Sequence record: MZ868638.1
Length of the DNA: 64,000 nt
From: Escherichia phage vB_EcoM-pEK20
Strand: one strand, 5' to 3'
Part shown: in pieces, positions 1 through 27,781 of the stretch
Numbering within the stretch: the stretch's first letter is position 1
Layout of the letters: each line of letters starts with the position of its first letter
Program-made: the position numbers and the translations under genes
Notes under the pieces: generated by a model
What the model saw: the letters and a program-made list of their open reading frames with translations, nothing else
Told to the model about the DNA's origin: nothing
Databases searched by the model: none

Positions 1-306
1 TTTTATTTTAACGAACGTGAAACAGTTATTTCCGATAGGTTAATTAATTCGCTGTATCAGCATGCTGATTATGTCTATTTTCAAAATGAATTCGGACATT
101 GGAAGTTTCTTAAAAACCGTTCCGGGTTAACTAGTTTTGAATACTTTGACCGTAAAGACCTTTTAAACGAAATTCCATTACAACATAGGTTCCAGAAACG
201 CGAATCACTATACTATTGTCGTCATATACCAAATGCTGAATGTGTTGATGAAGTAATTAATCTATGGCGTAGACGTAGAGAACAAATTGATGATATGTCA
301 AAATAA
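1..306 (+). CDS. hypothetical protein, 5' end outside window (C-terminal ~101 aa)
   Basis: Frame 1 open from nt 1 to TAA 304-306; no homolog recognised. Confidence 0.4.
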   Translation, partial: FYFNERETVISDRLINSLYQHADYVYFQNEFGHWKFLKNRSGLTSFEYFDRKDLLNEIPLQHRFQKRESLYYCRHIPNAECVDEVINLWRRRREQIDDMSK

Positions 307-475
307 GAAGCCGGGTCGCTACCGGCAAGTCGTCGGACTGATGTTCCCTGAGTAAGGACTGGTCTTAATAAATCTTTATGATTTGTTAATATCCCCTTAC
401 ATCACAGCAGAAACGGCGCAAAGAATTATCGATTCGAGGAAATATCTTTGCCGTAAGCCGAGTAGCGTTTTTGAC

Positions 476-567
476 GGAACGTTCGGATATGGTCGAGATA
501 TGGCCTTTTAAAAATATTGAGTAGCGTCAACTGCTTAATAACCGGGTTCGAATCCCGGCGTTTCGTA
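476..567 (+). ncRNA. tRNA-like remnant or small stable RNA (non-canonical cloverleaf)
   Basis: T-arm ccggg-TTCGAAT-cccgg at 543-559; 476-482 cggaacg can pair with 560-566 cgtttcg; D and anticodon arms do not fold canonically. Confidence 0.2.
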
Positions 568-610
568 CAAACACTTGCCTTAGTAGGTGGAAACCCCGAC
601 AAGGTATATA

Positions 611-639
611 GCCCCTTCCGAAAGGTTGGGGCTTTTTTG
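611..639 (+). terminator. rho-independent terminator
   Basis: stem gcccc 612-616 / ggggc 629-633 followed by T-run 634-639. Confidence 0.7.
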
Positions 640-640
640 T

Positions 641-648
641 ATAAATAT
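641..648 (+). promoter_or_regulatory. T4-type late promoter core TATAAATA
   Basis: exact TATAAATA 35 nt upstream of internal-protein-like gene at 683. Confidence 0.5.
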
Positions 649-682
649 AGTAAACAATAAACCTACTTTCTAAGGACCATCA

Positions 683-1309
683 ATGTATACTTTTAATGAA
701 TTTTTAGCCGAAACGGAAGTAATCACCGAAGCCGGTGTACGTATGACAAAAGAGAAATGGCAAGCTGCTTACGATGCTATTTCTGGTACAAAAACTAGTA
801 CAGAGTTTTTCAAAAACGTTCAAGCCATGTATGGTATCGACACTTCCAGCCAAAAAGAATATTACAGAGCTTCTAAAGCATTCAAAGATATTGTTAGTGG
901 CGGTGTTTCTGCTAAATCGGGTTCGCCTAAAGTAAAACCTGCTCCTACCGTTCCTAAACCTGCGACCCCTAAAGCAATAGCAAAACCTGAGCCTAAGCCG
1001 GAAGTAAAAGCAACTCCTAAAGCTCCTGCTCTTAAGTTTGATACTTCTAGCCTGGAAAAAAAATATAAACAACTATCTTCGCTTGTTCGTGATATTGAAT
1101 CCGATACATCTTCACTCGTTCGTGAATTCAACAGTCTTCGTAATGGCCAACATATCAACAACCTTGATACCCCAGACCTTTATCGTCTTTATTTGACTAT
1201 CGAAGGTTTGAAGTATACTCAACCACTTCACGATGCGATTAAAGAAAAACTTCGTCAGGCAGGTCGTTTGGCTGCTGACGCTGCTCAGTATGCAAAAACT
1301 CGTAAGTAA
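683..1309 (+). CDS. internal (head-packaged) protein-like, Pro/Lys-rich, with capsid-targeting-like N-terminus
   Basis: N-terminus MYTFNEFLAE resembles T4 IP leader MKTYQEFIAE; SD taagga upstream; PKP repeats. Confidence 0.5.
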   Translation: MYTFNEFLAETEVITEAGVRMTKEKWQAAYDAISGTKTSTEFFKNVQAMYGIDTSSQKEYYRASKAFKDIVSGGVSAKSGSPKVKPAPTVPKPATPKAIAKPEPKPEVKATPKAPALKFDTSSLEKKYKQLSSLVRDIESDTSSLVREFNSLRNGQHINNLDTPDLYRLYLTIEGLKYTQPLHDAIKEKLRQAGRLAADAAQYAKTRK

Positions 1310-1314
1310 AGAAT

Positions 1315-1333
1315 GGGGACTTCGGTCCCCATT
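1315..1333 (+). terminator. UUCG-tetraloop hairpin (terminator/RNA stabiliser), no strong U-run
   Basis: ggggac-ttcg-gtcccc directly after stop of 683..1309. Confidence 0.4.
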
Positions 1334-1361
1334 AGGGGGTCTATAACTTACTGAAAAAGTT

Positions 1362-1390
1362 GTTTACTTCTTCCCTAGATGTGTTACTAT
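1362..1390 (+). promoter_or_regulatory. early promoter (T4 early type)
   Basis: -35 gtttac 1362-1367, 17-nt spacer, -10 tactat 1385-1390 preceded by tg. Confidence 0.6.
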
Positions 1391-1418
1391 AGACCTATAA
1401 AAACATGAGGAAAATGTT

Positions 1419-1922
1419 ATGAGTCTTTATACCGAACTGAATAAAAAATCTGAAGAATCTGCTGAAACTATTTTTAAAAACGTGCAAAAGCGTATTTTAG
1501 AAAAGATGTATAACACTGCAGCTAAAGGTGAAAAATCTTGCCGGTTTCCGATGAGGTGTTCTTCTGATTTATGCGCAAATACTATTGAATGGCTGGAAAG
1601 TGAAGGTCTTACGGTAGAGAAAAACCCGGCGACTTCTATTGACAGCGAATCATATATTAGTATTTCTTGGGATAAATCAAGGGTAGAAGAGAAAGATGGT
1701 GATTGGGTTGTAGATGTTAAAACTTCTGATGGTGGACGTTCTGTTGAAGTTTCAGCTGTAGTTAAAGGTACCCACGAACAAAGGACTTGGGGTTGGGGTG
1801 GTGAAGAAAAAGAAATTGTTCTTAGTGTGATTGCCAGGTCAACCAGTAATAAAATTGCACAAAGCATCATTGACGCTGCAATTGCTGAAGCAGAAAAAAT
1901 TTGCAAAATTAAAAATAAATGA
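1419..1922 (+). CDS. hypothetical protein
   Basis: ATG ORF with gagg SD 9 nt upstream; no homolog recognised. Confidence 0.5.
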   Translation: MSLYTELNKKSEESAETIFKNVQKRILEKMYNTAAKGEKSCRFPMRCSSDLCANTIEWLESEGLTVEKNPATSIDSESYISISWDKSRVEEKDGDWVVDVKTSDGGRSVEVSAVVKGTHEQRTWGWGGEEKEIVLSVIARSTSNKIAQSIIDAAIAEAEKICKIKNK

Positions 1923-1951
1923 TGTACAAACGCCAAGGACGGTGTTACTAT
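1923..1951 (+). promoter_or_regulatory. early promoter
   Basis: -35 tgtaca, -10 tactat 1946-1951; the listed ORF start at 1919 lies inside this promoter. Confidence 0.45.
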
Positions 1952-1981
1952 AGACTTATCAACTACAGAGGAGTAAACAAA

Positions 1982-2146
1982 ATGACTACTTTAATTATTT
2001 GGTTTGACGAAAATGAAGAAACATACTGTGTGAACATTGGCGAAAGCCCAATGCCTGAATTTGAATCCTCAGATAAAAACTCTGTTGTATCTTGGGCTGA
2101 AGGTTATAAAGCAGCTAAAGGTGACGTTGAAATAATTTACATCTAA
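1982..2146 (+). CDS. hypothetical small protein
   Basis: internal ATG (M22 of ORF 1919..2146) preceded by SD gaggag; upstream part of listed ORF is promoter sequence. Confidence 0.45.
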   Translation: MTTLIIWFDENEETYCVNIGESPMPEFESSDKNSVVSWAEGYKAAKGDVEIIYI

Positions 2147-2164
2147 GTAAGTTTATGTTATAGT
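2135..2164 (+). promoter_or_regulatory. early promoter
   Basis: -35 atttac, -10 tatagt 2159-2164 within tgttatagtag motif shared by many promoters here. Confidence 0.5.
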
Positions 2165-2192
2165 AGTCCTATCAAATCAAGAGGAAAACAAA

Positions 2193-2420
2193 ATGGCTAA
2201 AGTTAGTATTGATGTCGTTGATTATGAATACACCGAAGAAGTTATTCGCAACCGACACCCTGAAGTTCGTATCGATTCAGTCCAAGATTCCAAGTTCTGG
2301 ACAACTGAGCTTAATCTGAGCGGTCCTTATGAAGTTGTTAAGAAGTTCATGGTTGAAGAATACTGCGAAGGCATGCACCCGGAAGACGCCGAGTTTTATG
2401 TCAATTTGATTAAAAAATAA
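2193..2420 (+). CDS. hypothetical protein
   Basis: ATG ORF, SD agagga upstream. Confidence 0.5.
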   Translation: MAKVSIDVVDYEYTEEVIRNRHPEVRIDSVQDSKFWTTELNLSGPYEVVKKFMVEEYCEGMHPEDAEFYVNLIKK

Positions 2421-2449
2421 TTTACAAACTCTTGAGAGCAGAGTATAAT
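2421..2449 (+). promoter_or_regulatory. early promoter inside repeated stem-loop cassette
   Basis: -35 tttaca 2421-2426, -10 tataat 2444-2449 flanked by inverted repeat gagagc/gctctc. Confidence 0.55.
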
Positions 2450-2468
2450 GCTCTCGTTGGATAATAAA
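2425..2468 (+). repeat. promoter cassette copy A (near-identical to 32539..32584)
   Basis: caaactcttgagagcagagtataatgctctc...ttggataataaa occurs twice in window. Confidence 0.8.
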
Positions 2469-2490
2469 CCACCAATTGAAAGGTAATAAT

Positions 2491-3084
2491 ATGAACACAC
2501 TGAAGAAACTTGTTGAATTCATCCGCACTAAACTGGGTACTGCTATGGCTAAAAATCTGACTGTCGAAGAACAGTATAACGCAGCTGCAGATAAGTTGAT
2601 TACCCAAATCAAAGAACTAAAAACGGCTTCTGTTAAATCTATTAATGAAGAAAAACGTATTCGCGAACTTGTTATTGAAAAGAATAAGCAAGCCGCTTCT
2701 AAGGAACGTGAAATTCGTAAGCTCCTGGCTGAAGGACAAGATGTTACCATGCATGCTAAGCTTGGTCTTCTGTATCGTCGAACTGCCGAACAACTTAATA
2801 CAAAAGCTGACGGGTATGCCGCTATGCGAATTGAAATTGCTCGTAAGGTTGTTGAACTTGACGATGCTCGTCAGAATCTGGCAATCAAACTCGAATACAT
2901 TCGTGAAACTCGAGCAGCTAATGCCCTTGGTATCTCTACGGCTGATGATGTAATTGAAATCGCTGCACTGACTAAGGTTGATATCGAAGACACTCTGACT
3001 CGTGTTGAAACGTTCAATGGTACTCCAGCTGGTGTCGAAACCACTTCTGCTGATGTACAAGAATATATTAACTCTTTGAAATAA
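2491..3084 (+). CDS. hypothetical protein (likely coiled-coil)
   Basis: ATG at M6 of listed TTG-start ORF; heptad-like charged sequence. Confidence 0.5.
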
Positions 3085-3092
3085 AATAATAC

Positions 3093-3114
3093 GGAGGACT
3101 CCGGTCCTCCTTTT
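3093..3114 (+). terminator. rho-independent terminator
   Basis: stem ggaggac 3093-3099 / gtcctcc 3104-3110, loop tccg, then tttt. Confidence 0.7.
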
Positions 3115-3133
3115 GGATAATAAAGGAGTTAAC

Positions 3134-3730
3134 ATGCGAAACCAAAATAATGATATTGACTCAATGTTCGAAGAGTTCCGAGATAAGGTAAATCCACCTA
3201 CGTCTTTAGTTGATTCATTACGATATGTTGCAACTGGACGTAAATGGTACTGGTCGTCTTCTTATGAGACAACTGAATATGCAAATAACCGAAAATCTTT
3301 ATTAGCCCCAGGTATTATGATTCATGATATCGGAGCTATTGCTAAACTAGTTGCAGACCATGATATTAGATTCACTGATTTCGTTGCTCCTACGTGGTCT
3401 GTTTGTTGTTTAAACACTGAATGGGACTATATCAGTGAACGTTCAGATGATTACATAGGCTTTAGAGACAAGCTTTTAAGGTCTAACATGTTTTATATTG
3501 ATACAGAAGTTCTGGTCAATAATAAAAAATACTACTTCACTTTAATCGTCGATTCTGAAACTATGTATGAAGGCAAGCCTTTGCTTAAAAGAGTTGATGC
3601 TTTAAGTGCTATTGATGCGCTTTATGAAACCATGGTTGTTAGTCCTAATTTCACTAACAATTTAATCCTTGAGCAATTTATTATGGAATGTAGAGAATAT
3701 GTCAAAGCCAACCCTATACATGCCAAGTAA
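3134..3730 (+). CDS. hypothetical protein
   Basis: ATG with SD aaagga; C-terminus carries EQFIMECR junction motif. Confidence 0.5.
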   Translation: MRNQNNDIDSMFEEFRDKVNPPTSLVDSLRYVATGRKWYWSSSYETTEYANNRKSLLAPGIMIHDIGAIAKLVADHDIRFTDFVAPTWSVCCLNTEWDYISERSDDYIGFRDKLLRSNMFYIDTEVLVNNKKYYFTLIVDSETMYEGKPLLKRVDALSAIDALYETMVVSPNFTNNLILEQFIMECREYVKANPIHAK

Positions 3731-4094
3731 GCCCTGGGCGTATGAATACAAGCGTAAATTAATCCCAAATGAAGTACTATTTGGCCCTATTTTAGCTTTA
3801 GCGTTTTTAATCTTTATGTTTATAGGAGCTGTTTTAGATTCCAATAAAGTTATATCGTCTGATGCAGCGTTTTCATTAATGTTCGTCGCACCACTTATTG
3901 TACCGTTTTTATTAATGCCTATTAATTGGGCAGGATATTGGCACCAAGGCCGTCATCACAGAGCCCGATTAAGAGAATGGAAAGTTCAGTGCGCAAAAGC
4001 CCAAGCTCAGTATGATGAAGCTGTTAAAAAGTATGAATATGAAGAAGCTATGGAATTCGTTAAGGAAATAAGATGCAAAAACCTCAACTCTTAA
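3699..4094 (+). CDS. small membrane protein (2 predicted TM segments)
   Basis: first in-frame ATG of listed TTG ORF; hydrophobic segments; C-terminal EFVKEIRC motif; start uncertain (3720 also possible). Confidence 0.4.
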   Translation: MSKPTLYMPSKPWAYEYKRKLIPNEVLFGPILALAFLIFMFIGAVLDSNKVISSDAAFSLMFVAPLIVPFLLMPINWAGYWHQGRHHRARLREWKVQCAKAQAQYDEAVKKYEYEEAMEFVKEIRCKNLNS

Positions 4095-4315
4095 CCGTAT
4101 GGCCTTCTCTTGGTGAGAACGTTCTAATTTTTATTATGAGTATTGGCATGGGATTTGCCTTTGGATTAGTTGGATTTCTTATTGACGGCGTTGTGTTAGG
4201 ATTTATAGGGAACACTGTTGGATTCACAGACCAATGGCAGGACTTACGGTATACACAAGCCTTTGCATCCATCGCATCATTTTGTACTGTAGTCTATTTT
4301 TACTACGATTTATAA
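4073..4315 (+). CDS. small membrane protein
   Basis: ATG ORF, strongly hydrophobic 80 aa. Confidence 0.45.
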   Translation: MQKPQLLTVWPSLGENVLIFIMSIGMGFAFGLVGFLIDGVVLGFIGNTVGFTDQWQDLRYTQAFASIASFCTVVYFYYDL

Positions 4316-4426
4316 ACCATAACAAGAAAAATAAAAAGGTTTACGCTTCTCAAATGATTAGTTATAATGAACTCCTAGCTAGACGTGAAAATGAAACAAT
4401 CGAAAACTTTATTAAGGAATGTAGAA

Positions 4427-4732
4427 ATGAGTAAGATTATTGAAATTAAAGTACCAGAGTTTAATGATGCCAAATCCGCTTCAGATGCAATTTATAAACT
4501 TCTGAATCAAGCTGAACGTATCGAAGAAGAAGCAACAAAGATCGCAGACCAATATGCCGTATCATTTTCTGTAGGTGATTATGGTAGTGGTCGTACTTAT
4601 TATCCTAAGGGTGAAATCGTATCCCAGTGGATGAAAGATGAAATTGAAAATAATGGTGGCGATGTTAAGCGTGAAGGTAATGGTTACATTATTACTGAAG
4701 GTGCTTGGGTTTCGTCTTCTGCGTTGTGCTAA
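4427..4732 (+). CDS. small protein, paralog family with C-terminal GxW[VI]SSSxxC (copy 1)
   Basis: ATG at M15 of listed GTG ORF; C-terminus GAWVSSSALC. Confidence 0.5.
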   Translation: MSKIIEIKVPEFNDAKSASDAIYKLLNQAERIEEEATKIADQYAVSFSVGDYGSGRTYYPKGEIVSQWMKDEIENNGGDVKREGNGYIITEGAWVSSSALC

Positions 4733-4741
4733 GGAATCATT

Positions 4742-5014
4742 ATGTCTAAAGAACAAACCGAACTGGCTGAAGCCGTAGCAAAAATCTATGCAGCTATTGA
4801 GGCTGCCAAAGAAATTGCTGATAAACAAAACACAACATTCGACTTGTATCCAGCTTATGGTATGGGTGGAACCTATCATTCACCGGGACAACTTAAAGCC
4901 GATCTTGAACGTTGTACAAAAAACGGCTATGCTGAATGGGCTGACGTTTACCAATACGACTACAATCTGAGCCTCGAAACTGGTGGTTGGATTGCGTCTT
5001 CTCACACTTGCTAA
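4742..5014 (+). CDS. small protein, paralog family (copy 2)
   Basis: ATG ORF; C-terminus GGWIASSHTC. Confidence 0.5.
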   Translation: MSKEQTELAEAVAKIYAAIEAAKEIADKQNTTFDLYPAYGMGGTYHSPGQLKADLERCTKNGYAEWADVYQYDYNLSLETGGWIASSHTC

Positions 5015-5023
5015 GGAAATCAT

Positions 5024-5221
5024 ATGTCTCGTGAATTAGATTGTGCTGTACGTACGGCAGTAGCTGCCCTAGAAAACCTGTTCCAAATTGCAACAGAAGA
5101 ACGCGAAGAAGTTACATTATGGATTGAAGATAACGCAGGTCTGAATCTCCAGAATGCAATCTCGGTATCAAATAATAGTATTACTGTTCAAGGCTGGGTA
5201 TCATCTAGTTATTCTTGCTAA
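5024..5221 (+). CDS. small protein, paralog family (copy 3)
   Basis: ATG ORF; C-terminus QGWVSSSYSC. Confidence 0.5.
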   Translation: MSRELDCAVRTAVAALENLFQIATEEREEVTLWIEDNAGLNLQNAISVSNNSITVQGWVSSSYSC

Positions 5222-5225
5222 AACA

Positions 5226-5255
5226 GTTTACAACAAGATAGGGCTATGTTATAGT
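5226..5255 (+). promoter_or_regulatory. early promoter in stem-loop
   Basis: -35 gtttac 5226-5231, -10 tatagt 5250-5255; inverted repeat gatagg 5237-5242 / cctatc 5259-5264. Confidence 0.6.
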
Positions 5256-5283
5256 AGTCCTATCAAATTAAACGGAGACCACA

Positions 5284-5523
5284 ATGATTTATTACGAAAG
5301 TGTTGGAACCAAAGTGGTTGGTAAAACCATTACTCGTGAAAAGTTTGCAAAGATATTCGATATGCGTTATAAAAAATCTGAACACAAAGGCATCCGATTC
5401 GAAGATGCACACTGTACAATTTGCCCTTATAATGAAGACATAAATGGTACAATCGTTCCATTAGTAGAGGCTTCACACGATGACCTCTGGGATGAATATA
5501 ATATCGCATGTCGTGAAATTTAA
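5284..5523 (+). CDS. hypothetical protein
   Basis: ATG ORF with SD ggagacc upstream. Confidence 0.45.
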   Translation: MIYYESVGTKVVGKTITREKFAKIFDMRYKKSEHKGIRFEDAHCTICPYNEDINGTIVPLVEASHDDLWDEYNIACREI

Positions 5524-5547
5524 GTTAATTAATCCGAGGAAAATATT

Positions 5548-6504
5548 ATGATGTTAGTTATTGGTTCTCGTGCACTTCACTATCATGGTCTTATTGATTC
5601 TAGCGCTATCAAAAATAGCGATTGGGACTTTATTGCGGACCAAGGTTCTTGGAATGCATTCAAAAATCAAATGATGGGTGTATATGTTCACCAAGACAAC
5701 CCTGATGTCCAAGTTTTCAAATGCTTCCATAATGGACGCGAAACTCATTTTGAAGCATATATTGTTCCGGCAATCACTAATGTTCGTGAACTAGTCGGTG
5801 AACTCACTCCTGAAGATTTCACGTCTTCTTATGACCTTTTAAAATACGCCAAGAAAAATTTGACTAAAGATCGTTTGACCGGGTTTTACTGGGCAACTCC
5901 TGAGATATGTCTTGCAATTAAAATGTCTCATCGTTTCAAGAAAAATAATCCATTCTTTTTAAAGACTATGAACCATATTCAGTATCTTCGTGGTAAAGGT
6001 GTTACACTGAACGATGAACTTACTGAAATTATGCTGAAACGCCAGAAAGAAACTTTGAACTATGCTCACCCAGTTCTTGACACTTCTAAAAGTGCGTTCT
6101 TTAAAGATGACATCTATACATATGACCATGATACTATTCACGAAGCCATTGCACTAACAGACCGTCCGGCTTATACGTTTTACATGAAAGACGGTTCTGA
6201 AGTCATGACCTCACGCGAGAAGTTCGAATCGTTACCAGAAATGGTCAAATTGGCCGGCGTATATGAAGAATCATGTGTACTAGCGTTAGAACGTTCTCAG
6301 ATTCCTAATAACTTTGAAATTAACCCTGAAGCCAGTTTCATGATGGCATTAGAAAAAGTCTGCACAAGCATCACCTCCGGTTGGTTCCGTGAGTATGCCT
6401 GGGAGAACTATGGCAAAGTAGTAAGTATGTATCAAAGCTTAGGACACGACGATTACGTCAAGCGTTTCAAACAAAATTTTCATATGGTAAAACCTTTCAA
6501 ATAA
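5548..6504 (+). CDS. hypothetical protein (possible minimal nucleotidyltransferase fold, weak)
   Basis: 318-aa ORF, SD gagga; N-terminal IGSRALHY...DWD loosely resembles GS...DxD motif. Confidence 0.5.
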   Translation: MMLVIGSRALHYHGLIDSSAIKNSDWDFIADQGSWNAFKNQMMGVYVHQDNPDVQVFKCFHNGRETHFEAYIVPAITNVRELVGELTPEDFTSSYDLLKYAKKNLTKDRLTGFYWATPEICLAIKMSHRFKKNNPFFLKTMNHIQYLRGKGVTLNDELTEIMLKRQKETLNYAHPVLDTSKSAFFKDDIYTYDHDTIHEAIALTDRPAYTFYMKDGSEVMTSREKFESLPEMVKLAGVYEESCVLALERSQIPNNFEINPEASFMMALEKVCTSITSGWFREYAWENYGKVVSMYQSLGHDDYVKRFKQNFHMVKPFK

Positions 6505-6516
6505 CTTCACAAAACT

Positions 6517-6546
6517 GTTTACAACAAGATAGGACTATGTTATAGT
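6517..6546 (+). promoter_or_regulatory. early promoter in stem-loop
   Basis: -35 gtttac 6517-6522, -10 tatagt 6541-6546; inverted repeat ataggact/agtcctat. Confidence 0.6.
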
Positions 6547-6574
6547 AGTCCTATTAAAACATGAGGAGAATATT

Positions 6575-6880
6575 ATGAAATTAGGCGAAACCAACCGAAT
6601 TGGTCTTTTAACAATATTTGCATCACCTTTTTACGCAGCTCTTTCTGTTGCAGTATTACAAAAGGCTTACGATATGGATGGTGTTCCTGGTTGTATATTC
6701 TTATCACCATTTTTATTATTCGTCGGGGCTTTGTTATTATATGCCACGACTAGTTTTGACCATAATGTCTGGGTTAATTATAAATGTAAATTGTCTGAAG
6801 AAGAACACGCAGAAGCTCGTAAAAAAGCTATTGAATCTACCAATCTAGAAAATTTCATTAAAGAATGTCGAGGAAAATAA
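6575..6880 (+). CDS. small membrane protein with C-terminal ENFIKECR motif
   Basis: ATG ORF, SD gaggag; two hydrophobic segments. Confidence 0.5.
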   Translation: MKLGETNRIGLLTIFASPFYAALSVAVLQKAYDMDGVPGCIFLSPFLLFVGALLLYATTSFDHNVWVNYKCKLSEEEHAEARKKAIESTNLENFIKECRGK

Positions 6881-6881
6881 T

Positions 6882-7568
6882 ATGAATAGTTCTAAAGTGT
6901 TTAATAGTCAAGCTCGTGCAGTAGGTGGTTTCGCTGGCCGTATCAGTAATGATAAAATTAAAAATGAGCCTATGTTCTTCAACTGCGACCTGAAGTTTGC
7001 TTTTGATAATGGCGGTCCTATCACTCGTTCTTTCATCATGAATCTGCCTGATGACTGGAACACTAATGAAGTAGTATTCGATTCACGTGTTCATATGCTT
7101 ATGCCTGGTTGGTACCCTGCTATTCCTGGATATCACCATGACGATGTTCCTCGCCCTGATATTCCAGTCGGCCAACACTTTATTACTGCAGGACAACCTG
7201 ACTATGATAACCCTCGTTACCATTCTGAACATATTCTTGGTCTTGTTAACGCTGACGTGTGTCCTACTCATTTTGCAACAGGAACTGCAGAGTTCAGTCA
7301 GATTCCTGATGGCGAACTTATCTATCGCCAGTGGCACAAAGAAGTCCTCGAAAAAATTGAAAAAGGTGAACTAGAGAAATGGGAAGCTCCGGACCGTACT
7401 CTTCTTCAGTTTGATTGGCAAACATGGCACACTGGTTCTCGTGCAATTAGTAATGGATGGCGTTGGTTCGGACGTGTATCTCGTAATACAGACCGAGTTA
7501 AAAAGATTACCAATGAAATTCGTGTCAACGCTCAAGTTTATCTAGAATTCCCTATGGAAGGCTGGTAA
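6882..7568 (+). CDS. hypothetical protein
   Basis: 228-aa ATG ORF, start 1 nt after upstream stop. Confidence 0.5.
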   Translation: MNSSKVFNSQARAVGGFAGRISNDKIKNEPMFFNCDLKFAFDNGGPITRSFIMNLPDDWNTNEVVFDSRVHMLMPGWYPAIPGYHHDDVPRPDIPVGQHFITAGQPDYDNPRYHSEHILGLVNADVCPTHFATGTAEFSQIPDGELIYRQWHKEVLEKIEKGELEKWEAPDRTLLQFDWQTWHTGSRAISNGWRWFGRVSRNTDRVKKITNEIRVNAQVYLEFPMEGW

Positions 7569-8059
7569 TGATTAACAAAACATATTGGTCTAATATTGAC
7601 GACGGCAATGAAGGTATTTCGTACTATTCGGTGGATTGGACAGGATGTCCATCCTACTTAGTGAAACATATTTGCCAAGAATTTAAAATCGACCAGCCAG
7701 CAGGTATTATTGTGAACAGATACATTAACGGATATCAACCTATCGATGAAGTAATACGAACAACTCAAGCTGATCTTGAAAAGTTTTTCAATAAGTGCCA
7801 ATGGATAACAGGATGGATTATATTTGTACCGTCGGTATGGTTTTTTAGTACTAAAGTAAGTGCCTTTGCCATACCAGATATTATCGCTATCTTATTAGCA
7901 TCTACTATCGTAAGTATTATTGGTGGTATTATTGGTGGAGGTACTATAGGCATCATTATTAATCTTGTTAAAAGTAGTTTACAGGAACGTAAAGACAAGA
8001 TAAAGGCCAAGAATAATGAAGTTGAACGTTTTATTACCGAATGCAGGAATTTGAGATGA
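7568..8059 (+). CDS. membrane protein with C-terminal ERFITECR motif
   Basis: ATG overlapping upstream stop (taATGa); Gly/Ile-rich TM segment. Confidence 0.5.
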   Translation: MINKTYWSNIDDGNEGISYYSVDWTGCPSYLVKHICQEFKIDQPAGIIVNRYINGYQPIDEVIRTTQADLEKFFNKCQWITGWIIFVPSVWFFSTKVSAFAIPDIIAILLASTIVSIIGGIIGGGTIGIIINLVKSSLQERKDKIKAKNNEVERFITECRNLR

Positions 8060-8292
8060 GTATAGCAATTTACATTAAATCAGAATCATGTGATAGTTAT
8101 CTGTACACATACGATAAAGATGTGTCAGAAGAAAAAATCAAAGACGATCTTAATATGGACCTTGATTTGTTCAGTCCTATTGCAGATTACAAACTTGCGG
8201 TCTCTAATAGTGAAAGTCCATCTAAAGAAACGCGCATTGAAGAATTTATGTCCGAATTAATGGCCAAATCATGGGACCGAGATGATGAGTAA
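8056..8292 (+). CDS. hypothetical small acidic protein
   Basis: ATG at M6 of listed ORF, agga 9 nt upstream. Confidence 0.4.
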   Translation: MSIAIYIKSESCDSYLYTYDKDVSEEKIKDDLNMDLDLFSPIADYKLAVSNSESPSKETRIEEFMSELMAKSWDRDDE

Positions 8293-8740
8293 GAAAAATA
8301 AAGTGAAAGAACTATCAGCCGGTATTATTTTCCTTACCGAAAATAAAGAATTATTCATGGGTCGTGTAACTGGTTCTCGTCCTAAAGGTGCATTAGCTCA
8401 TCGGTGGGATATTCCTAAAGGCCGTGTCGAACCTGGCGAATCTCCTATTGAAGCCGCTATTCGTGAATGCGAAGAAGAAACTGGGTTTACACAATATGAT
8501 CCTGCCTTCCTGAAAGACCTAGGTGAACATCATTACTCAGACAATAAGAATATTCATCTGTTCCTATATACCATCCCTGTAGAGCACGAGCAATTCAGAA
8601 ACAGTGTTTGCAATTCCTATCATACATTCCCAGACGGACGTCAGATTCCTGAATTTGATGCATTCGCTTTAATTAAACCTTCTCAATGGGAATATGTAAT
8701 GGGCAAATCATTATATAAGGTGCTCACTACCCTCCTATAA
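8282..8740 (+). CDS. nudE: Nudix hydrolase (T4 NudE/e.1-like)
   Basis: Nudix box GRVEPGESPIEAAIRECEEETG; position immediately upstream of lysozyme as in T4. Confidence 0.75.
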   Translation: MMSKKNKVKELSAGIIFLTENKELFMGRVTGSRPKGALAHRWDIPKGRVEPGESPIEAAIRECEEETGFTQYDPAFLKDLGEHHYSDNKNIHLFLYTIPVEHEQFRNSVCNSYHTFPDGRQIPEFDAFALIKPSQWEYVMGKSLYKVLTTLL

Positions 8741-8774
8741 GTAATAAATACCTCCTATAAACGTGGGAGGTATT

Positions 8775-9263
8775 ATGAATATATTTGAAATGCTTCGTAA
8801 TGACGAAGGTCTTAGACTGACTTTATACAAAGACACTGAAGGCTTTTGGACGATTGGCATAGGCCATTTAGTAACAAAGAACCCGTCTTTAGCCGTAGCT
8901 AAAGCTGAACTTGACAGAATGATCGGACGTAAATGCAACGGTACAATTACCCTTGATGAGGCTGAAAAGTTATTTAATGAAGACGTTGATAAAGCTGTTC
9001 GCGGAATCTTGGGTAATGCTAAACTTAAACCGGTATATGATTCTTTAGATGCAGTTCGTCGATGTGCATTGGTCAATATGGTCTTCCAAATGGGTGTAGC
9101 AGGCGTCGCTGGTTTTACTAATTCTCTTCGTATGCTTCAACAGAAACGTTGGGACGAAGCGGCAGTAAATCTAGCCCAATCTAAATGGTATCGTCAGACA
9201 CCTAATCGCGCGAAACGCGTAATCTCAACATTTAAAACAGGAACTTGGAAAGCGTATATATGA
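8775..9263 (+). CDS. e: endolysin, T4 lysozyme
   Basis: MNIFEMLR...GHLLTK...[27 protein letters not shown] closely matches T4 gpe; SD gggagg. Confidence 0.95.
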
Positions 9264-9541
9264 AAACATATAGTGAATTTTTATCAGAATCTATTCTTAA
9301 CGAAGCTACTGACACATTTGCAACTAAGCTAGGTGCAGCTTTGGTTGAAGCTGAAAGTTTATTAGCACGTATTTCTGAACTTGCTAGTAAGATAGATACT
9401 CGCAAATTTGAGCGCACCAGTGATATCGTTAAGCTTGAAGCCTTGTTGCGTATGTGCGATAAACCGGAAGAAATCGCTAAGAACGGCTCGCTGATGAAAC
9501 AACGTCTTGAAAAATATATTTCAGGCGCTTCAGAAAAATAG
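9260..9541 (+). CDS. internal protein (capsid-targeting sequence [10 protein letters not shown]), IPII/IPIII-like
   Basis: T4 IP leader consensus at N-terminus; ATGA overlap with e stop; position between e and denV. Confidence 0.6.
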
Positions 9542-9542
9542 T

Positions 9543-9572
9543 GTTTACTTCCTCCAAGGGTTTTGATACTAT
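9543..9572 (+). promoter_or_regulatory. early promoter upstream of denV
   Basis: -35 gtttac 9543-9548, -10 tactat 9567-9572. Confidence 0.55.
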
Positions 9573-9599
9573 ACATTCATCAACTACTTGGAGGAAATT

Positions 9600-10013
9600 A
9601 TGACTCGTATCAATTTAACACTTGTTTCTGAACTGGCCGACCAACATCTTATGGCTGAGTATCGTGAATTACCACGCGTATTTGGTGCAGTCCGTAAACA
9701 TGTTCAAAACGGTAAACGTGTAAAGGATTTTAAAATCTCTCCAACATTTATCTTAGGCACAGGTCACGTAACATTCTTTTACGACAAACTCGAATTTTTA
9801 CGTTTACGCCAAATCGAGCTAATCGCTGAATGCTTGAAACGTGGTTTCAAAATCAAGGACACGACTGTCCAGGATATTTCCGACATCCCTGCCGAATTTC
9901 GTAATAATTATGTCCCGTCCGAAGCGTCCATTGCGATAAGTCAAGCACGCTTAGATGAAAAAATTGCTCAACGTCCGACTTGGTACAAATACTATGGTAA
10001 ATCAATTTACTAA
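9600..10013 (+). CDS. denV: endonuclease V, pyrimidine-dimer DNA glycosylase
   Basis: [28 protein letters not shown]... matches T4 DenV. Confidence 0.95.
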
Positions 10014-10019
10014 GGAAAA

Positions 10020-10136
10020 ATGAAAATGTATCAAGAATTTATCATTGAAGCAGAGGCCAAAGGTCCTAAAGTAGATGTTGACGATATTGGATATGATTTT
10101 AACAACTTCGGAATTATTTCTGGCGGTAAAGCTTAA
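10020..10136 (+). CDS. mini internal-protein-like ORF (38 aa) with capsid-targeting leader MKMYQEFIIE
   Basis: SD aagga then ATG 10020; not in ORF track because <60 aa. Confidence 0.35.
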   Translation: MKMYQEFIIEAEAKGPKVDVDDIGYDFNNFGIISGGKA

Positions 10137-10139
10137 ACG

Positions 10140-10169
10140 GTTTACGCTTAAGTATTAATATGGTATAAT
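10140..10169 (+). promoter_or_regulatory. early promoter
   Basis: -35 gtttac 10140-10145, extended -10 tggtataat, tataat 10164-10169. Confidence 0.65.
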
Positions 10170-10199
10170 TGCTCTATCAAAACAAACAAGGAAACAAAA

Positions 10200-10514
10200 A
10201 TGAAAACCTATAAAGAATTTATTGCAGAATCCGCCAACCAACGCGTTGAAGGTGGTTATATTTGGATTGAACAAGTTGAGCCACCGAGCCGCACTTCTAC
10301 AGGTAAATGGAAAATTACTGTTGATGGTCCTGGTGGTAAACGTAGGACTCTTAAAGAAATTAATGGGTACTATGAAGAAGCTCTTTCGGATGCAGGAACT
10401 TACATGATGCAAATCATGATTAAAAACCCTGAAAACCGTTTTGCAGCTAAAGTCTTCCGCCGTATTGGTAATAAACTTTATGATGCATATTCTAAAAACT
10501 TCCCTAAAGAATAA
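10200..10514 (+). CDS. internal protein (leader MKTYKEFIAE)
   Basis: T4 IP leader consensus; ~100 aa basic protein. Confidence 0.6.
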   Translation: MKTYKEFIAESANQRVEGGYIWIEQVEPPSRTSTGKWKITVDGPGGKRRTLKEINGYYEEALSDAGTYMMQIMIKNPENRFAAKVFRRIGNKLYDAYSKNFPKE

Positions 10515-10540
10515 CATAAATTAAAACAATAGGAAAAAAA

Positions 10541-10843
10541 ATGAAAACATATCAAGAATTTATTACTGAAGCGCGAGTGAGTGCAGGTAAATTAGAAGCC
10601 GCTATAAATAAAAAGGCCCATTCATTTCATGATTTGTCCGATAAAGACCGTAAGAAACTTGTAAGCCTTTATATTGACAAAGAGCGTATTCTCGCTCTTC
10701 CTGGCGCTAATGAAGGTAAACAGGCCAAGCCTTTGAATGCCGTCGAAAAGAAAATTGATAACTTTGCTTCTAAATTCGGTATGTCTATGGATGACCTTCA
10801 GCAAGCGGCTATCGAAGCAGCTAAAGTAATTAAAGGTAAATAA
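10541..10843 (+). CDS. internal protein (leader MKTYQEFITE)
   Basis: T4 IP leader consensus; SD aggaaa. Confidence 0.6.
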   Translation: MKTYQEFITEARVSAGKLEAAINKKAHSFHDLSDKDRKKLVSLYIDKERILALPGANEGKQAKPLNAVEKKIDNFASKFGMSMDDLQQAAIEAAKVIKGK

Positions 10844-10845
10844 CA

Positions 10846-10874
10846 GTTTACTTTCTCCTAGAATTGTGATAGTA
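10846..10874 (+). promoter_or_regulatory. early promoter (diverged copy of the denV promoter)
   Basis: -35 gtttac 10846-10851, -10 tagtat 10869-10874. Confidence 0.5.
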
Positions 10875-10900
10875 TATTCATAATTACTTGGATGGGTAAA

Positions 10901-10999
10901 ATGACTTATATTAATTTGACTTTAGTATCTAAATTTGCTGATCAACATTTAATCGCCGAATACTGTGAATTGCCACGTGTTTTTTGGTATAATTCGTAA
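10901..10999 (+). pseudogene. denV 5' fragment (frameshifted, truncated second copy)
   Basis: [28 protein letters not shown] then stop; deleting one T restores GIIRKHV matching DenV GAVRKHV. Confidence 0.6.
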
Positions 11000-11172
11000 A
11001 CACGTGGCAAAAATATTTACATTCAAATAAAATGGGAACAACCTGGACCTCATGATTCTATGAGGGATTCCCGCCAACCTGTAATAAGGTCGAGCCCAAG
11101 TGCGGTAATGGGTAAATACAGAAATGGACAATTCATGCGCCACGGAACGGCCCCAACCTTAAGAGAAACTAA

Positions 11173-11712
11173 ATGAGAACATTTTTAACCGGACCTTATC
11201 TATCCCTGATGAATGCTTTTACACACCATTCTGATGCTAGAGTAGAAGAAATTTGTAAGAACGGTTATGCCCCACCATTTGAAGACGTACTCAAGCAGTA
11301 CTGTACACTTCGTTTAGACGGTGGCAGACAATCCGGTAAATCAATTGCTGTGACTAATTTTGCTGCTAATTGGTTGTATGATGGCGGAACGGTTATTGTT
11401 CTTTCTAATACTTCAGCTTATGCTAAAATTTCTGCTGGCAACATTGAAAAAGAATTTTCTCGTTATTCTAGCGACGATATTCGATTCCGTTTATTTACTG
11501 ATTCTGTTCGTAGTTTTATTGGTAATGAAGGACATAAATTCCGTGGATTAACACTTTCTCGTATTCTGTACATAATTGACGAGCCTATTAAAGCTCCTGA
11601 TATGGATAAGATTTACGACATCCATATTAAAACAGTCCAACACTGTTGCAAAAGCAAATATTGCATCGGCGGTAATGCTCGTCCTCAATTTTTTGTGATT
11701 GGAATGCAATGA
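11173..11712 (+). CDS. P-loop NTPase, function unknown
   Basis: Walker A DGGRQSGKS and Walker B-like LYIIDEP. Confidence 0.5.
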   Translation: MRTFLTGPYLSLMNAFTHHSDARVEEICKNGYAPPFEDVLKQYCTLRLDGGRQSGKSIAVTNFAANWLYDGGTVIVLSNTSAYAKISAGNIEKEFSRYSSDDIRFRLFTDSVRSFIGNEGHKFRGLTLSRILYIIDEPIKAPDMDKIYDIHIKTVQHCCKSKYCIGGNARPQFFVIGMQ

Positions 11713-12017
11713 TGACCGCTATTGAAGTTTTTGAGTACTGTTATAACAGCCCAGTATGCAATAAAAGGGCCCTTGTAGAAAATTATGAGATTTACCATTT
11801 TAAACCTAAACGATACCGTTTGACTAAAGGTCCGTTCGCAGGGCAGCAGGTTCTTTGTACTGCTCCTAATGCACGGTTGATGACTAGTATTCCACATTTC
11901 AAAATGGAATTTATTGATGGGCCATTTAAAGGATTAATCACTCAAAGTTTAATGGCGTTTAATTCCGACCCATTTTTGATTAAAGAAAAAACTTGGATAA
12001 ATTTATTTTCTAATTGA
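11709..12017 (+). CDS. hypothetical protein
   Basis: ATG overlapping upstream stop (ATGATGA). Confidence 0.45.
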   Translation: MMTAIEVFEYCYNSPVCNKRALVENYEIYHFKPKRYRLTKGPFAGQQVLCTAPNARLMTSIPHFKMEFIDGPFKGLITQSLMAFNSDPFLIKEKTWINLFSN

Positions 12018-12023
12018 GGTTAT

Positions 12024-12386
12024 ATGAAAGCATATCAAATTCTTGAAGGTGAACATAAAGGCACTATTTATTTTGAAGACGGTACTCAAGCCCGGATTAT
12101 TGTCTCTAAGACTTTTAAAGAAGACACTATTGTAGACCCGGAAATTTTCTACGGTTTGAATGCTCGTGAAATTGAAATTGAACATCAACCTAAAGTTAAA
12201 ATTGAAGGTGGTCAACACCTGAACGTTAACGTTCTGCGTCGCGAAACTCTGGAAGATGCAGTTAAGCATCCAGAAAAATATCCGCAGCTGACCATCCGTG
12301 TATCCGGTTATGCAGTTCGCTTTAACTCTCTGACTCCGGAACAGCAGCGCGACGTTATCGCTCGTACCTTTACCGAGAGTCTATAA
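12024..12386 (+). CDS. grcA: autonomous glycyl-radical cofactor GrcA/YfiD-like protein
   Basis: C-terminal ~60 aa ...[59 protein letters not shown] matches E. coli GrcA as I recall it; 3' half GC-rich. Confidence 0.8.
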
Positions 12387-12610
12387 TGGCTAAATTGATT
12401 ATAGAAGGGTCTGAAGATGTTTTAAAATGTTTTGCCGCCTGGTTTAGTTGCCCAGGCGAGCAATCATTCATTGAAGCATTTAGAACGGGTGATATTACTG
12501 GAAACTATCCGACAACTGATATCACTGTACGTGGATATGGTATTAATGAGCCTATCCAATTGGTCGAATATGACCTTGCCACCGATGAGGAAATTCCTTA
12601 TGTCGATTGA
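12386..12610 (+). CDS. hypothetical protein
   Basis: ATG overlapping grcA stop (TAATG). Confidence 0.4.
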   Translation: MAKLIIEGSEDVLKCFAAWFSCPGEQSFIEAFRTGDITGNYPTTDITVRGYGINEPIQLVEYDLATDEEIPYVD

Positions 12611-12845
12611 AGACATCAAAGGCTACAAGCCGCATACCGATGATAAAATCGGTAAAGTGAACGCTATTAAAGATGCCGAAGTTCGTTTAGGACTTATTCT
12701 AGACGCCCTGGCAGAAGAAGCATTATCAGCAAATACTCCTGAAGCTCTGACGGCTTTGTCCCAATTGAACTGTGCTAAAGAACGCCTAAAGGAAGCTAGT
12801 ATGTGGGCTTGTCGTGCGGTATTTCAACCAGAGGAAAAATACTAA
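12600..12845 (+). CDS. hypothetical protein
   Basis: ATG at M57 of listed ORF 12432; SD gagg; upstream part overlaps the previous gene in another frame. Confidence 0.4.
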
Positions 12846-13144
12846 TGGCTCAAATCCTATCAGGCTTTGGAACTCATTATGAAGCATCTCGACGCATAAC
12901 TGAAAGCAATCCTTTTGGCCTTGTTCCGAAGCACAAGAAAATTCAAAGCCTTGATGACTTTGAGAATCGCCTATGGGCCCTCTTTAATGAGTACAAGGCA
13001 TATCTGAAAGAAGACGCTGACGATTGTCTTGAAGAAGATGAGATTGCGTATTACGAACAACGCCTTGAACAGCTCAAGAACTTCCACCAGGTTCGTGACG
13101 AAGTATCTAAAGCAGTTAAAAAGTTAATTCCTTTCAAAGAGTAG
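12845..13144 (+). CDS. hypothetical protein
   Basis: ATG overlapping upstream stop (TAATGG). Confidence 0.45.
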
Positions 13145-13172
13145 TTTACTTCTCCTCTAGTTGTGTTACTAT
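13144..13172 (+). promoter_or_regulatory. early promoter in stem-loop, upstream of regB
   Basis: -35 gtttac 13144-13149, -10 tactat 13167-13172; inverted repeat tctcctctagttg / caactagaggaga. Confidence 0.65.
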
Positions 13173-13200
13173 AGACCTGTCAACTAGAGGAGAAATCAAA

Positions 13201-13659
13201 ATGACTATCAATTCAGACGTTTTTATCCGCCGCAATAAACTCCGTCGAATCTTTGAAACGGAGTTCCGCAAAATAAATGCCAGTATAAAAGATGCTGCAA
13301 AGTCTCTTGGACTACCGGGCTTTCATATCAAGTATTCTCAACATCTCTTAGATCGTGCCATCCAGAGAGAAATAGATGAGAATTACGTTTTTGAATTATT
13401 TCATAAAGTAAAAAATCATGTTAAAGAAGTTGCAGAATTTTTATCAATGCCGGCACGTCCAGATGTTGATGAAGATTTTGTCGAAGGTGTCGAATATCGC
13501 CCAGGCCGTTTAGAAATAACTGATGGAAATCTTTGGTTAGGACTTACAGTTTGTCGCGAAAATCCAGCATTCAAAATGAAGACTCTTCAATGCAGAATGG
13601 CTATTATTAACAATAAACGACTACCAGGAAAAGCTTCTAAAGCAGTGATTAAAATCTAG
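13201..13659 (+). CDS. regB: RegB site-specific endoribonuclease
   Basis: MTINSDVFIRRNKLRR...YSQHLLDRAIQREIDE...LQCRMAIINNKRLPGKASKAVIK matches T4 RegB. Confidence 0.9.
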   Translation: MTINSDVFIRRNKLRRIFETEFRKINASIKDAAKSLGLPGFHIKYSQHLLDRAIQREIDENYVFELFHKVKNHVKEVAEFLSMPARPDVDEDFVEGVEYRPGRLEITDGNLWLGLTVCRENPAFKMKTLQCRMAIINNKRLPGKASKAVIKI

Positions 13660-13667
13660 AGGTAAAC

Positions 13668-14210
13668 ATGAGAAAAGCACTACTCGCTGGTCTATTTGCT
13701 CTTTCATTATCAGCACATAGCTCCGAGCATACTTTTAGTAATGTCCAACTCGATAACTTGAATTATGCTTATCAGTTTGGGGAACAGTTTTCTAAGGATG
13801 GAAAATTTAAAACGCATGAAAATATGCATAAGAAAGGACTTGGATACATAATGGCCGCAATACTATGGCAGGAATCATCTGCCGGTATTAATCTTAAAGA
13901 TAAGAAAGGTCACCATGCGTATGGAATGTTCCAAAATTATCTACCAACAATGAGGGCAAGAATTAACCAACTTGGTTATAATATGACTGATGCCCAAATT
14001 AAGAAAATGCTATCTAAGCGGTCTAATTCAGCCAGATGGGCTTATATAGAATTTTCTTATTGGTTAAATATACATAACGGGGATATAAGGAAAGCCTTAT
14101 CCTCATATAATGCGGGATGGAAGACAAGTGCTGGAAGTAAATATGCTTCTGAAGTCCTAGAAAAGGCTAATTACCTTAAATCAAATAAACTACTGGAAAT
14201 AAAAGAATGA
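13668..14210 (+). CDS. secreted lytic-transglycosylase-like protein (signal peptide)
   Basis: N-terminal signal peptide; WQESSAG...GMFQ resembles Slt-domain catalytic motif. Confidence 0.45.
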   Translation: MRKALLAGLFALSLSAHSSEHTFSNVQLDNLNYAYQFGEQFSKDGKFKTHENMHKKGLGYIMAAILWQESSAGINLKDKKGHHAYGMFQNYLPTMRARINQLGYNMTDAQIKKMLSKRSNSARWAYIEFSYWLNIHNGDIRKALSSYNAGWKTSAGSKYASEVLEKANYLKSNKLLEIKE

Positions 14211-27307: not shown

Positions 27308-27781
27308 ATGTTATTATCAGGCGCAAAATATAAAGAAGAAAAACAAAAATTTTATGATGCACAGAACGGTAAGTGTCCTATTTGCCACCGTGAATTAGAC
27401 CCTGATGTTCAAGGTAACCATCTTGACCACGACCACGAATTAAACGGGCCAAAAGCCGGTAGAGTTCGTGGATTACTCTGTAATCTGTGCAACGCAGCAG
27501 AAGGTCAAATGAAGCATAAGTTCAACCGTTCCGGTCTTAAAGGACGTGATGTCGACTACCTCGAATGGCTTGAAGCTCTTCTTGCTTATTTGAAACAAGA
27601 TTATTCTGATAATAATATCCATCCTAATTTTGTTCCAGACAAAACTAAAGAGTTCTCAAGACTAGGTAAAGAGGAAATGATGGCTGAGATGCTTCAAAGA
27701 GGATTTGAATATAATGAATCTGATACCAAAACACAATTAATAGCTTCATTCAAAAAGCAGCTTAGAAAGAGTTTAAAATGA
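27308..27781 (+). CDS. 49: endonuclease VII (Holliday junction resolvase)
   Basis: near-identical to T4 gp49 over whole length (CPICHREL...GLLCNLCNAAEGQ). Confidence 0.95.
   Translation: MLLSGAKYKEEKQKFYDAQNGKCPICHRELDPDVQGNHLDHDHELNGPKAGRVRGLLCNLCNAAEGQMKHKFNRSGLKGRDVDYLEWLEALLAYLKQDYSDNNIHPNFVPDKTKEFSRLGKEEMMAEMLQRGFEYNESDTKTQLIASFKKQLRKSLK

Follow-up and report, generated by a model that had tools for sequence, protein, structure and literature searches.

Host grcA sequence inside the vs.6 gene of a T4-like phage, probably placed there by gene conversion

How does a strictly lytic phage, which destroys the DNA of its host, yet come to carry within one of its own genes a 168-nucleotide (nt) tract that is 99-100% identical to a current allele of that host? 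This question is raised by an open reading frame (ORF) in a 64-kb stretch of Escherichia phage vB_EcoM-pEK20 (MZ868638.1), hereafter called the window. The ORF encodes a small protein resembling GrcA (YfiD), the autonomous glycyl-radical cofactor of Escherichia coli, and the initial annotation, made from the sequence alone, had taken it for a chimera arising from a recent host acquisition. Herein, we report that the ORF represents, in Mosigvirus, the T4 gene vs.6, whose product is a long-established and conserved relative of bacterial GrcA/YfiD among phages, and that a 168-nt tract within it has probably been overwritten recently from the chromosomal grcA of E. coli by gene conversion. The host-identical tract is thus embedded in a homolog that is otherwise anciently diverged, and separate cases of the same arrangement were found in phages of E. 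coli and of Klebsiella pneumoniae.

Host-type tract and phage-type flanks in one gene

Residues 61-120 of the window protein were identical to residues 68-127 of E. coli K-12 GrcA (60/60). The initial annotation had described the last ~60 codons as apparently identical to GrcA/YfiD; this holds for the protein, with the correction that the DNA agrees at 175 of 180 nt. Codons 61-116 matched K-12 grcA at 167/168 nt, the lone mismatch being CCA for CCG at 12272, and four of the five synonymous differences sit in the last 4 of the 60 codons (post-hoc hypergeometric P = 1e-5). Counted in nucleotides rather than in codons, the identity of the tract with the host spans 12202 to 12373. Immediately upstream, codons 45-60 showed 54% nt identity to K-12 grcA, and codons 1-44 could be aligned only as protein. 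A blastn comparison of the gene with 5,426 complete E. coli genomes hit grcA in all of them, with 90.5% identity across gene positions 133-363; over the last 185 nt of the gene, the identity rose to 97.3%. The low identity that would have spoken against a host origin was not observed. None of these genomes held an allele identical to the window tract including CCA, the best value of 97.3% over 185 nt being the K-12 level. Over the 168 nt, identity to other hosts was 164/168 for a cryptic Escherichia, 153/168 for Citrobacter, 148/168 for K. pneumoniae, and 137/168 for Salmonella.

The composition of the gene switches at the same place, as had been claimed from its GC-richer 3' half with host-like codons and its AT-rich 5' half. 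With a G+C content (GC) of 0.50, the tract contrasts with the 5' half, whose GC was 0.33 (0.22 at third codon positions, GC3), and with the 64-kb window, whose mean was 0.37 (standard deviation 0.039); uniform GC across the gene, the alternative outcome, was not seen. The tract is the GC-richest stretch of the window, and among 168-nt segments across the 64 kb just 0.025% attained its GC, nearly all of these being the tract itself. Codon usage changed to CTG, CGT/CGC, and ATC: leucine was encoded by CTG in 5/6 cases in the 3' half versus 0/2 in the 5' half, isoleucine by ATC in 2/2 cases in the 3' half versus ATT in 9/9 in the 5' half, and arginine by CGT/CGC in 6/6.

A separate observation concerns positions 37446-37613, the only other 168-nt stretch at GC 0.50. 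It falls within a 562-amino-acid (aa) AAA_23/SMC_N ORF (37150-38838), a gp46-like recombination nuclease subunit, and had no megablast match in the E. coli genomes. It was considered as a second host-derived tract and ruled out, not being host-identical.

An assembly contaminated by host reads could produce a false chimera. Such an artefact would account for the near-identity to the host and for nothing else; the same in-frame mosaic, with its phage-type flanks and 3' end, recurs across 632 E. coli-phage records that are independent of one another, the T4 reference among them, and megablast of 62 kb of the window (1-12000, 12400-37399, and 37400-62399) against the E. coli genomes returned no match, which leaves no other host-like DNA in the scanned sequence. 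We regard this explanation as having a negligible chance of being right.

The identity of the gene was established from its locus and its families. Its boundaries were exactly those initially annotated, giving a product of 120 aa. The window belongs to a T4-like Mosigvirus: positions 11000-13700 shared 97-98% identity with phages AV117 and HX01 and 96.7% with Mosigvirus mar005p1. The co-oriented early genes e, denV, vs.8, vs.7, vs.6, vs.5, vs.4, vs.3, regB, vs.1, vs, tk.4, and tk follow the order of T4 at 58.5-67.5 kb gene for gene, and T4 vs.6 (NP_049730.1) agreed with the window ORF at 112/120 aa and 92% of nt, each gene being 363 nt long. Residues 1-120 covered profile positions 1-121 of the 121 in phrog_1209 (E 4.5e-63), the Pfam domain Gly_radical (PF01228) scored 67.2 bits against a cut-off of 22.2, and the best solved structure was PDB 6owr, E. 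coli GrcA (E 2e-42), followed by the C-terminus of PflB. Like members of the GrcA/YfiD family (TIGR04365, IPR011140), the window protein is small and stand-alone, with a C-terminal Gly_radical domain and an RVSGYAV loop, and RefSeq phage records, T4 vs.6 included, name the gene "autonomous glycyl radical cofactor GrcA". One score tells against that name: the NCBIfam GrcA equivalog TIGR04365 gave 158.4 bits, below its cut-off of 170, because the N-terminal half is diverged. The window protein is therefore filed under the phage vs.6 subfamily of GrcA-like proteins and not under the bacterial equivalog. Gene and function are already known, this being the Mosigvirus copy of T4 Y06I, which was characterised in 2001. 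Nolan et al. list vs.6 among only eleven T4 ORFs of unknown function kept in all five T4-like genomes that they compared (PMC1524935). The features are collected in Table 1.

Table 1. Coordinates of vs.6 and of the elements within and around it
Feature	Position in window	Strand	Basis or remark
vs.6 / Y06I ortholog, GrcA-like autonomous glycyl-radical cofactor gene	12024..12386	+	ORF, synteny, Pfam, PHROGs, PDB matches
Shine-Dalgarno-like TGAGG, 4 nt 5' of ATG	12015..12019	+	Read from sequence
Phage-type 5' half (codons 1-60), homologous to the N-terminal region of GrcA but anciently diverged	12024..12203	+	GC, hhalign, dN/dS
Host-derived patch over codons 61-116, equivalent to GrcA residues 68-123, the bulk of the structured glycyl-radical domain	12204..12371	+	167/168 to K-12 grcA
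Site polymorphic in E. coli (grcA position 240, CGC/CGT); window has K-12-type C	12242	+	Allele comparison
Sole substitution within patch, CCG>CCA, synonymous, G>A	12272	+	Comparison with K-12
Gly95 codon in RVSGYAV, equivalent to PflB radical glycine G734	12306..12308	+	Alignment to PDB 6owr, 1h16
Phage-type 3' end, ACC GAG AGT CTA TAA	12372..12386	+	Four synonymous differences from all hosts examined

The sharp switch in GC and codon usage near 12200, together with a tract nearly identical to E. coli grcA, is also what would be expected if the 3' half of host grcA had been captured recently and joined at its 5' side to unrelated, AT-rich phage DNA. The flanks speak against such a chimera. 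Homology to GrcA extends to the 5' half: the N-terminal halves of the phage proteins aligned by hhalign with residues 1-67 of bacterial GrcA with a probability of 94% (E 1.4e-7, 61 aligned columns, ~23% identity in the profile alignment), and HMMER aligned window residues 21-120 to GrcA 27-127. The ratio of nonsynonymous to synonymous divergence (dN/dS) of this half was ~0.14 both between the window and T4 and between the window and Jiaodavirus, indicating purifying selection among phages. Copies of the same length stand at the same locus in Slopekvirus and Pseudotevenvirus, where the tract is just 80-85% identical to any host. Furthermore, every host examined ends in ACT/ACC GAA AGC CTG, and the window shares GAG AGT CTA with the Slopekvirus and Pseudotevenvirus copies. 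With a phage-type 3' terminus, of which the last 12 nt are not those of the host, the host DNA is an internal patch and not a captured 3' half. Taken with the retention of vs.6 in all T4-like genomes (PMC1524935), these data make a capture chimera very unlikely. What stood of the initial claim is that the tract is host-derived and recent; the gene itself, given its N-terminal homology, its phage-type 3' end, and the conservation of vs.6, is neither newly acquired nor fused. The host sequence is thus best explained, with good probability, as a replacement patch laid by gene conversion inside a resident homolog.

A possible reason for the retention of the phage-type end lies in the next gene. 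The vs.5 start codon (12386) overlaps the vs.6 stop codon (TAATG), and GAGAG at 12375-12379 lies 6 nt 5' of that ATG and may serve as its Shine-Dalgarno sequence; in phage KLB25, codon 118 is annotated as the ribosome-binding site of the downstream gene.

Direction, age, and probable recurrence of the transfer

Recency was assessed from synonymous divergence (dS) over the same 56 codons. The window phage differed from E. coli K-12 by a dS of 0.024, and E. coli differed from a cryptic Escherichia, Citrobacter, K. pneumoniae, and Salmonella by 0.074, 0.44, 0.52, and 1.32, respectively. Between the window phage and T4, dS ranged from 0.67 up to saturation in the genes on either side of vs.6; within vs.6, it was 0.44 over codons 1-60 and only 0.049 over the patch. 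In the neighbor-joining (NJ) tree of the tract, those of E. coli phages were nested inside Escherichia in 290/300 bootstraps, and the tracts of the Tevenvirinae were monophyletic in 0/300. The patch thus groups in the host clade, and the 5' half and 3' end of the same gene are of phage type; this phylogenetic incongruence is that of intragenic recombination from host to phage. These comparisons indicate that the 3' tract is host-derived and recent.

Could the likeness have arisen with no transfer at all, through extreme purifying selection that extends to synonymous sites in a highly expressed gene with biased codons? The protein segment is indeed almost invariant across the Enterobacterales, and the codons of grcA are strongly biased. 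However, under equal constraint the hosts differ among themselves by a dS of 0.44-1.3 in the same codons, other phage genera encoding the same protein segment reach only 80-85% identity to any host, the phages of Klebsiella match K. pneumoniae rather than E. coli, and the GC of the tract stands out from that of the rest of the phage. We consider this explanation extremely improbable.

The transfer went from host to phage. This direction follows from four observations: relationships among the host tracts mirror those of the species, the GC of the tract is anomalous for the phage, later changes are biased from GC to AT, and no E. coli genome has the phage-type end. GC>AT changes made up 1/1, 1/1, 4/5, 4/6, 6/9, and 11/17 of the changes after transfer. 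The phage-type 3' end was found in none of the 5,426 E. coli genomes, none of which exceeded the 97.3% of K-12 itself.

The conversion appears to be host-specific. The 632 E. coli-phage records carried tracts 95-99% identical to E. coli grcA with a common left edge, and 106 Klebsiella-phage records carried tracts 95-99% identical to K. pneumoniae grcA. Klebsiella Jiaodaviruses combine a T4-type N-terminal half with a patch that matches K. pneumoniae at 162/168 nt versus 149/168 for E. coli, their proteins have the Klebsiella signature TLLDAVEH in place of TLEDAVKH, and Klebsiella phage 15882-6-2 shares an exact run of 129 nt with K. pneumoniae grcA. The signature of intragenic recombination was thus seen with a second host. 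A phage that had seemed to be a converted Slopekvirus, vB_Kpn_AM_K5, was rejected as such on being recognised as a Jiaodavirus; the Slopekvirus copies stay unconverted.

Among the E. coli phages, the patches differ in the E. coli allele that they match. At grcA position 240 (12242), K-12 has C, and BL21, O157:H7, SFAD3, and a cryptic Escherichia have T. The window has the K-12-type base, the Tequatroviruses fPS-65 and OES_C-2 have T, and the codon in T4 is CAT. The tracts of fPS-65 and OES_C-2 are identical to the BL21-type E. coli allele (168/168). The right-hand end of the patch also varies among the window, T4, fPS-65, and OES_C-2. In addition, the patch of Klebsiella oxytoca phage PKO111 was more diverged from those of other Jiaodaviruses (151-154/168) than its 5' half was (171-177/180), which is the reverse of what constraint predicts.

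These differences bear on whether there was a single event, that is, one conversion long ago from each host species into its phages, after which the patch passed on solely by recombination between phages and vertical descent. A left breakpoint common to all E. coli phages would fit such a history, as would the patch dS of 0.049 between the window and T4, and T-even phages recombine freely with each other. On the other side, fPS-65 and OES_C-2 match a current E. coli allele at every position whereas the allele found in the window is another one, the derived K-12 type; the variation of the right-hand ends from phage to phage resembles a four-gamete pattern; in PKO111, divergence is greater in the patch than beside it; and a common left edge would be just as likely if that were merely where homology stops. 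A single event per host species is accordingly the less likely history, though one that deserves a real share of belief, and conversion has probably been recurrent.

From the comparison of these sequences we infer the following recombination mechanism. During infection, host grcA DNA would recombine homologously with the resident phage vs.6 and overwrite codons 61-116. Phage sequence would survive on either side, in the diverged half upstream and in the final four codons, and heterology in both places would fix the ends of the patch. The patch would be confined to one stretch because only there are phage and host similar enough to recombine; since strict conservation of the protein keeps up this similarity, conversion could recur. 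The same conversion would have taken place with K. pneumoniae grcA in the Klebsiella Jiaodaviruses. T4-type phages possess a highly active recombination system. Whether T-even-type phages repeatedly renew the structured domain of vs.6, taking it during lytic infection from the chromosomal grcA allele of whichever host they grow in, is, in our estimate, evenly balanced.

Several points weigh against gene conversion and its recurrence. The clade of K. pneumoniae and Jiaodavirus tracts was recovered in only 168/300 bootstraps. A Salmonella- or Enterobacter-type patch was not found in the phage collection (best identities 84% and 86%), and near-identity to the host is limited to two host species, E. 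coli and K. pneumoniae. Copies that have stayed unconverted, at 80-85% identity to any host, are present in the Pseudotevenviruses and Slopekviruses and in Krischviruses that infect E. coli, which means that conversion is not universal; the Krischvirus tracts matched E. coli grcA at 124-128/168 nt, and infection of E. coli is therefore not sufficient for it. The single E. coli polymorphism shared between phages and hosts could be a parallel transition, and one conversion could have spread among co-infecting phages. Host DNA is degraded early by T4-type phages, which could limit the substrate, and the evidence for the mechanism is wholly comparative.

If conversion is ongoing, the genes of phage and host would undergo concerted evolution, and the patch would be a possible marker that records the recent host of a phage (K-12-type or B-type E. 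coli, or K. pneumoniae). It would be a natural and sequence-resolved case of gene conversion from host to virulent phage in the best-studied phage family, and would offer an experimental handle on the rates and tract lengths of host-to-phage recombination in T4-like phages. Host-like segments in the metabolic genes of phages could then mean conversion rather than fresh capture.

Other forms of the gene were encountered in the collections. The vs.6 homolog of E. coli Krischviruses (267-683 of the stretches extracted from two phages) is longer, at 138 aa, with an L..E signature. GrcA-like genes also occur in T5-like Demerecviridae. The copies of Providencia phage PSTRCR_121 (282-683 of the extract) and the Salmonella T5-like phage SE11 (320-688) start with the usual MKAYQ and have C-terminal signatures of PflB type (VMNREMLL.AME, LTKEQQ, and a final ..AM); by manual count, the PSTRCR_121 domain agreed with E. 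coli PflB at 53/60 residues versus 47/60 with GrcA. In some phage lineages, the domain may derive from, or be converted by, pflB rather than grcA. Among the records filed as plasmids, CP125156.1, LR134122.1, and NZ_CP170105.1 are really chromosomes or fragments thereof (e.g., a 5.37-Mb K. pneumoniae 'plasmid unnamed2'), and in one K. aerogenes record grcA is frameshifted by an extra A in an A-run, probably a sequencing error.

The glycyl-radical domain and its likely partner

Gly95 of the window protein corresponds to residue 102 of E. coli GrcA by the alignment offset. The equivalent glycine in PflB, the pyruvate formate-lyase (PFL) of E. coli, is G734, the site of the radical (PMC8683613). 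Residues 61-127 of E. coli YfiD fold like PflB 693-759 and hold the radical glycine; residues 1-60 are disordered and raise binding to cleaved PFL and installation of the radical about four-fold (PMC8683613). Both YfiD and T4 Y06I, once radicalised by the PFL activase, restore the activity of oxygen-cleaved PFL in vitro (Wagner et al. 2001, cited in PMC8683613).

Given that the glycyl-radical domain is 100% identical to that of GrcA, we infer that the window protein works by the same mechanism on host PflB with host PflA. The activase PflA would put a glycyl radical on Gly95, the C-terminal domain would replace the PflB fragment lost on oxygen cleavage at G734, and the fermentative output of acetyl-CoA and formate would be maintained in the infected cell under exposure to oxygen. 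The mosaic would then show that the domain inserted into PflB must match the host exactly, and that the N-terminal binding region is free for remodelling by the phage. Some caution is imposed by the fact that the function rests on in-vitro work with T4 Y06I, from which this protein departs by 8 substitutions, 7 of which fall in the N-terminal, binding half; moreover, no in vivo benefit to the phage is shown in the literature accessible to our search.

A different partner has also been proposed. The window encodes its own anaerobic ribonucleotide reductase, NrdD (27778-29595, 605 aa, an uninterrupted ORF with C-terminal RRTCGYLG), and the activase NrdG (29592-30062, 156 aa), and Nolan et al. 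(2006) suggested a function in nucleotide metabolism for the protein (PMC1524935), in keeping with early papers on T4-like genomes; the protein could serve NrdD or another glycyl-radical enzyme. However, BLASTP of the window protein against the window NrdD showed no significant similarity (E 2.8) and left the radical site unaligned (RRTCGYLG versus RVSGYAV). In contrast, 48/64 residues were identical to PflB 696-759 (manual count of the alignment; PDB 1H16/2PFL), the domain is that of GrcA, and T4 Y06I rescued cleaved PFL in vitro (PMC8683613). A role with NrdD is therefore highly improbable, and the initial suggestion of a spare PflB-like domain for host PFL rather than for NrdD is borne out by these same three lines of evidence. 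As a further detail of this locus, nrdD and nrdG adjoin with a 4-nt overlap within 27778-30062.

Neighbouring genes and relation to known systems

Some features of the early-gene cluster deserve mention. The ORF at 11173-11712 corresponds to T4 vs.8, yet in several records of related phages a gene under this region carries the name 'endoribonuclease' or 'RegB domain-containing'. The true homolog of RegB lies at 13201-13659, and these labels are probably a case of drift in public annotation. The vs.5 gene (12386-12610) encodes 74 aa in the window but 58 aa in T4; the likeness is restricted to the first ~17 residues, beyond which the two diverge completely. With 51% nt identity to T4, the lowest of the cluster, it looks like a frameshift or a replacement in one lineage. 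A promoter and terminator scan of 10800-13300 gave no more sites than shuffled sequence did, and ARAGORN found no tRNA gene over the 64-kb window, though the region of e, denV, and tk is spanned.

A search of the literature, outside which key older papers fell, retrieved no paper that joins grcA, phage, and gene conversion, nor one that treats vs.6 at the nucleotide level. The nucleotide-level identity of vs.6 to the host and its host-specific patches are thus apparently unreported.

The closest known relative is T4 Vs.6/Y06I, which has the same length of 363 nt, the same neighbours (vs.7 upstream and vs.5 downstream), and an E. coli-like 3' tract. It differs by the eight substitutions mentioned above, the one outside the N-terminal half being H73 in T4, where the window protein and E. 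coli have R. The T4 patch derives from the T allele at grcA position 240 and reaches two codons further to the right, whereas that of the window derives from the K-12-type C allele.

With E. coli GrcA (YfiD, PDB 6OWR), the window protein shares the C-terminal 60 residues, the RVSGYAV loop, and a homologous N-terminal half. Unlike GrcA, it is 7 residues shorter, its N-terminal half is only ~23% identical, and its gene stands in an early-gene cluster of a lytic phage, translationally coupled to vs.5. It shares a fold segment and the motif with the C-terminal domain of PflB (PDB 1H16/2PFL, 696-759), but is a stand-alone protein of 120 aa with a GrcA-type signature rather than the end of a 760-aa enzyme.

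The nearest parallel for the mosaic itself is offered by psbA and psbD of T4-like cyanophages (Zeidner 2005; Sullivan et al. 2006, PMC1484495), which are likewise host-derived metabolic genes with patchy %G+C and an exchange of segments between host and phage. In vs.6, by contrast, there is a single, sharply bounded patch that is up to 168/168 identical to a current host allele, it is found in the classical enterobacterial T-even phages, and the only direction seen is from host to phage.

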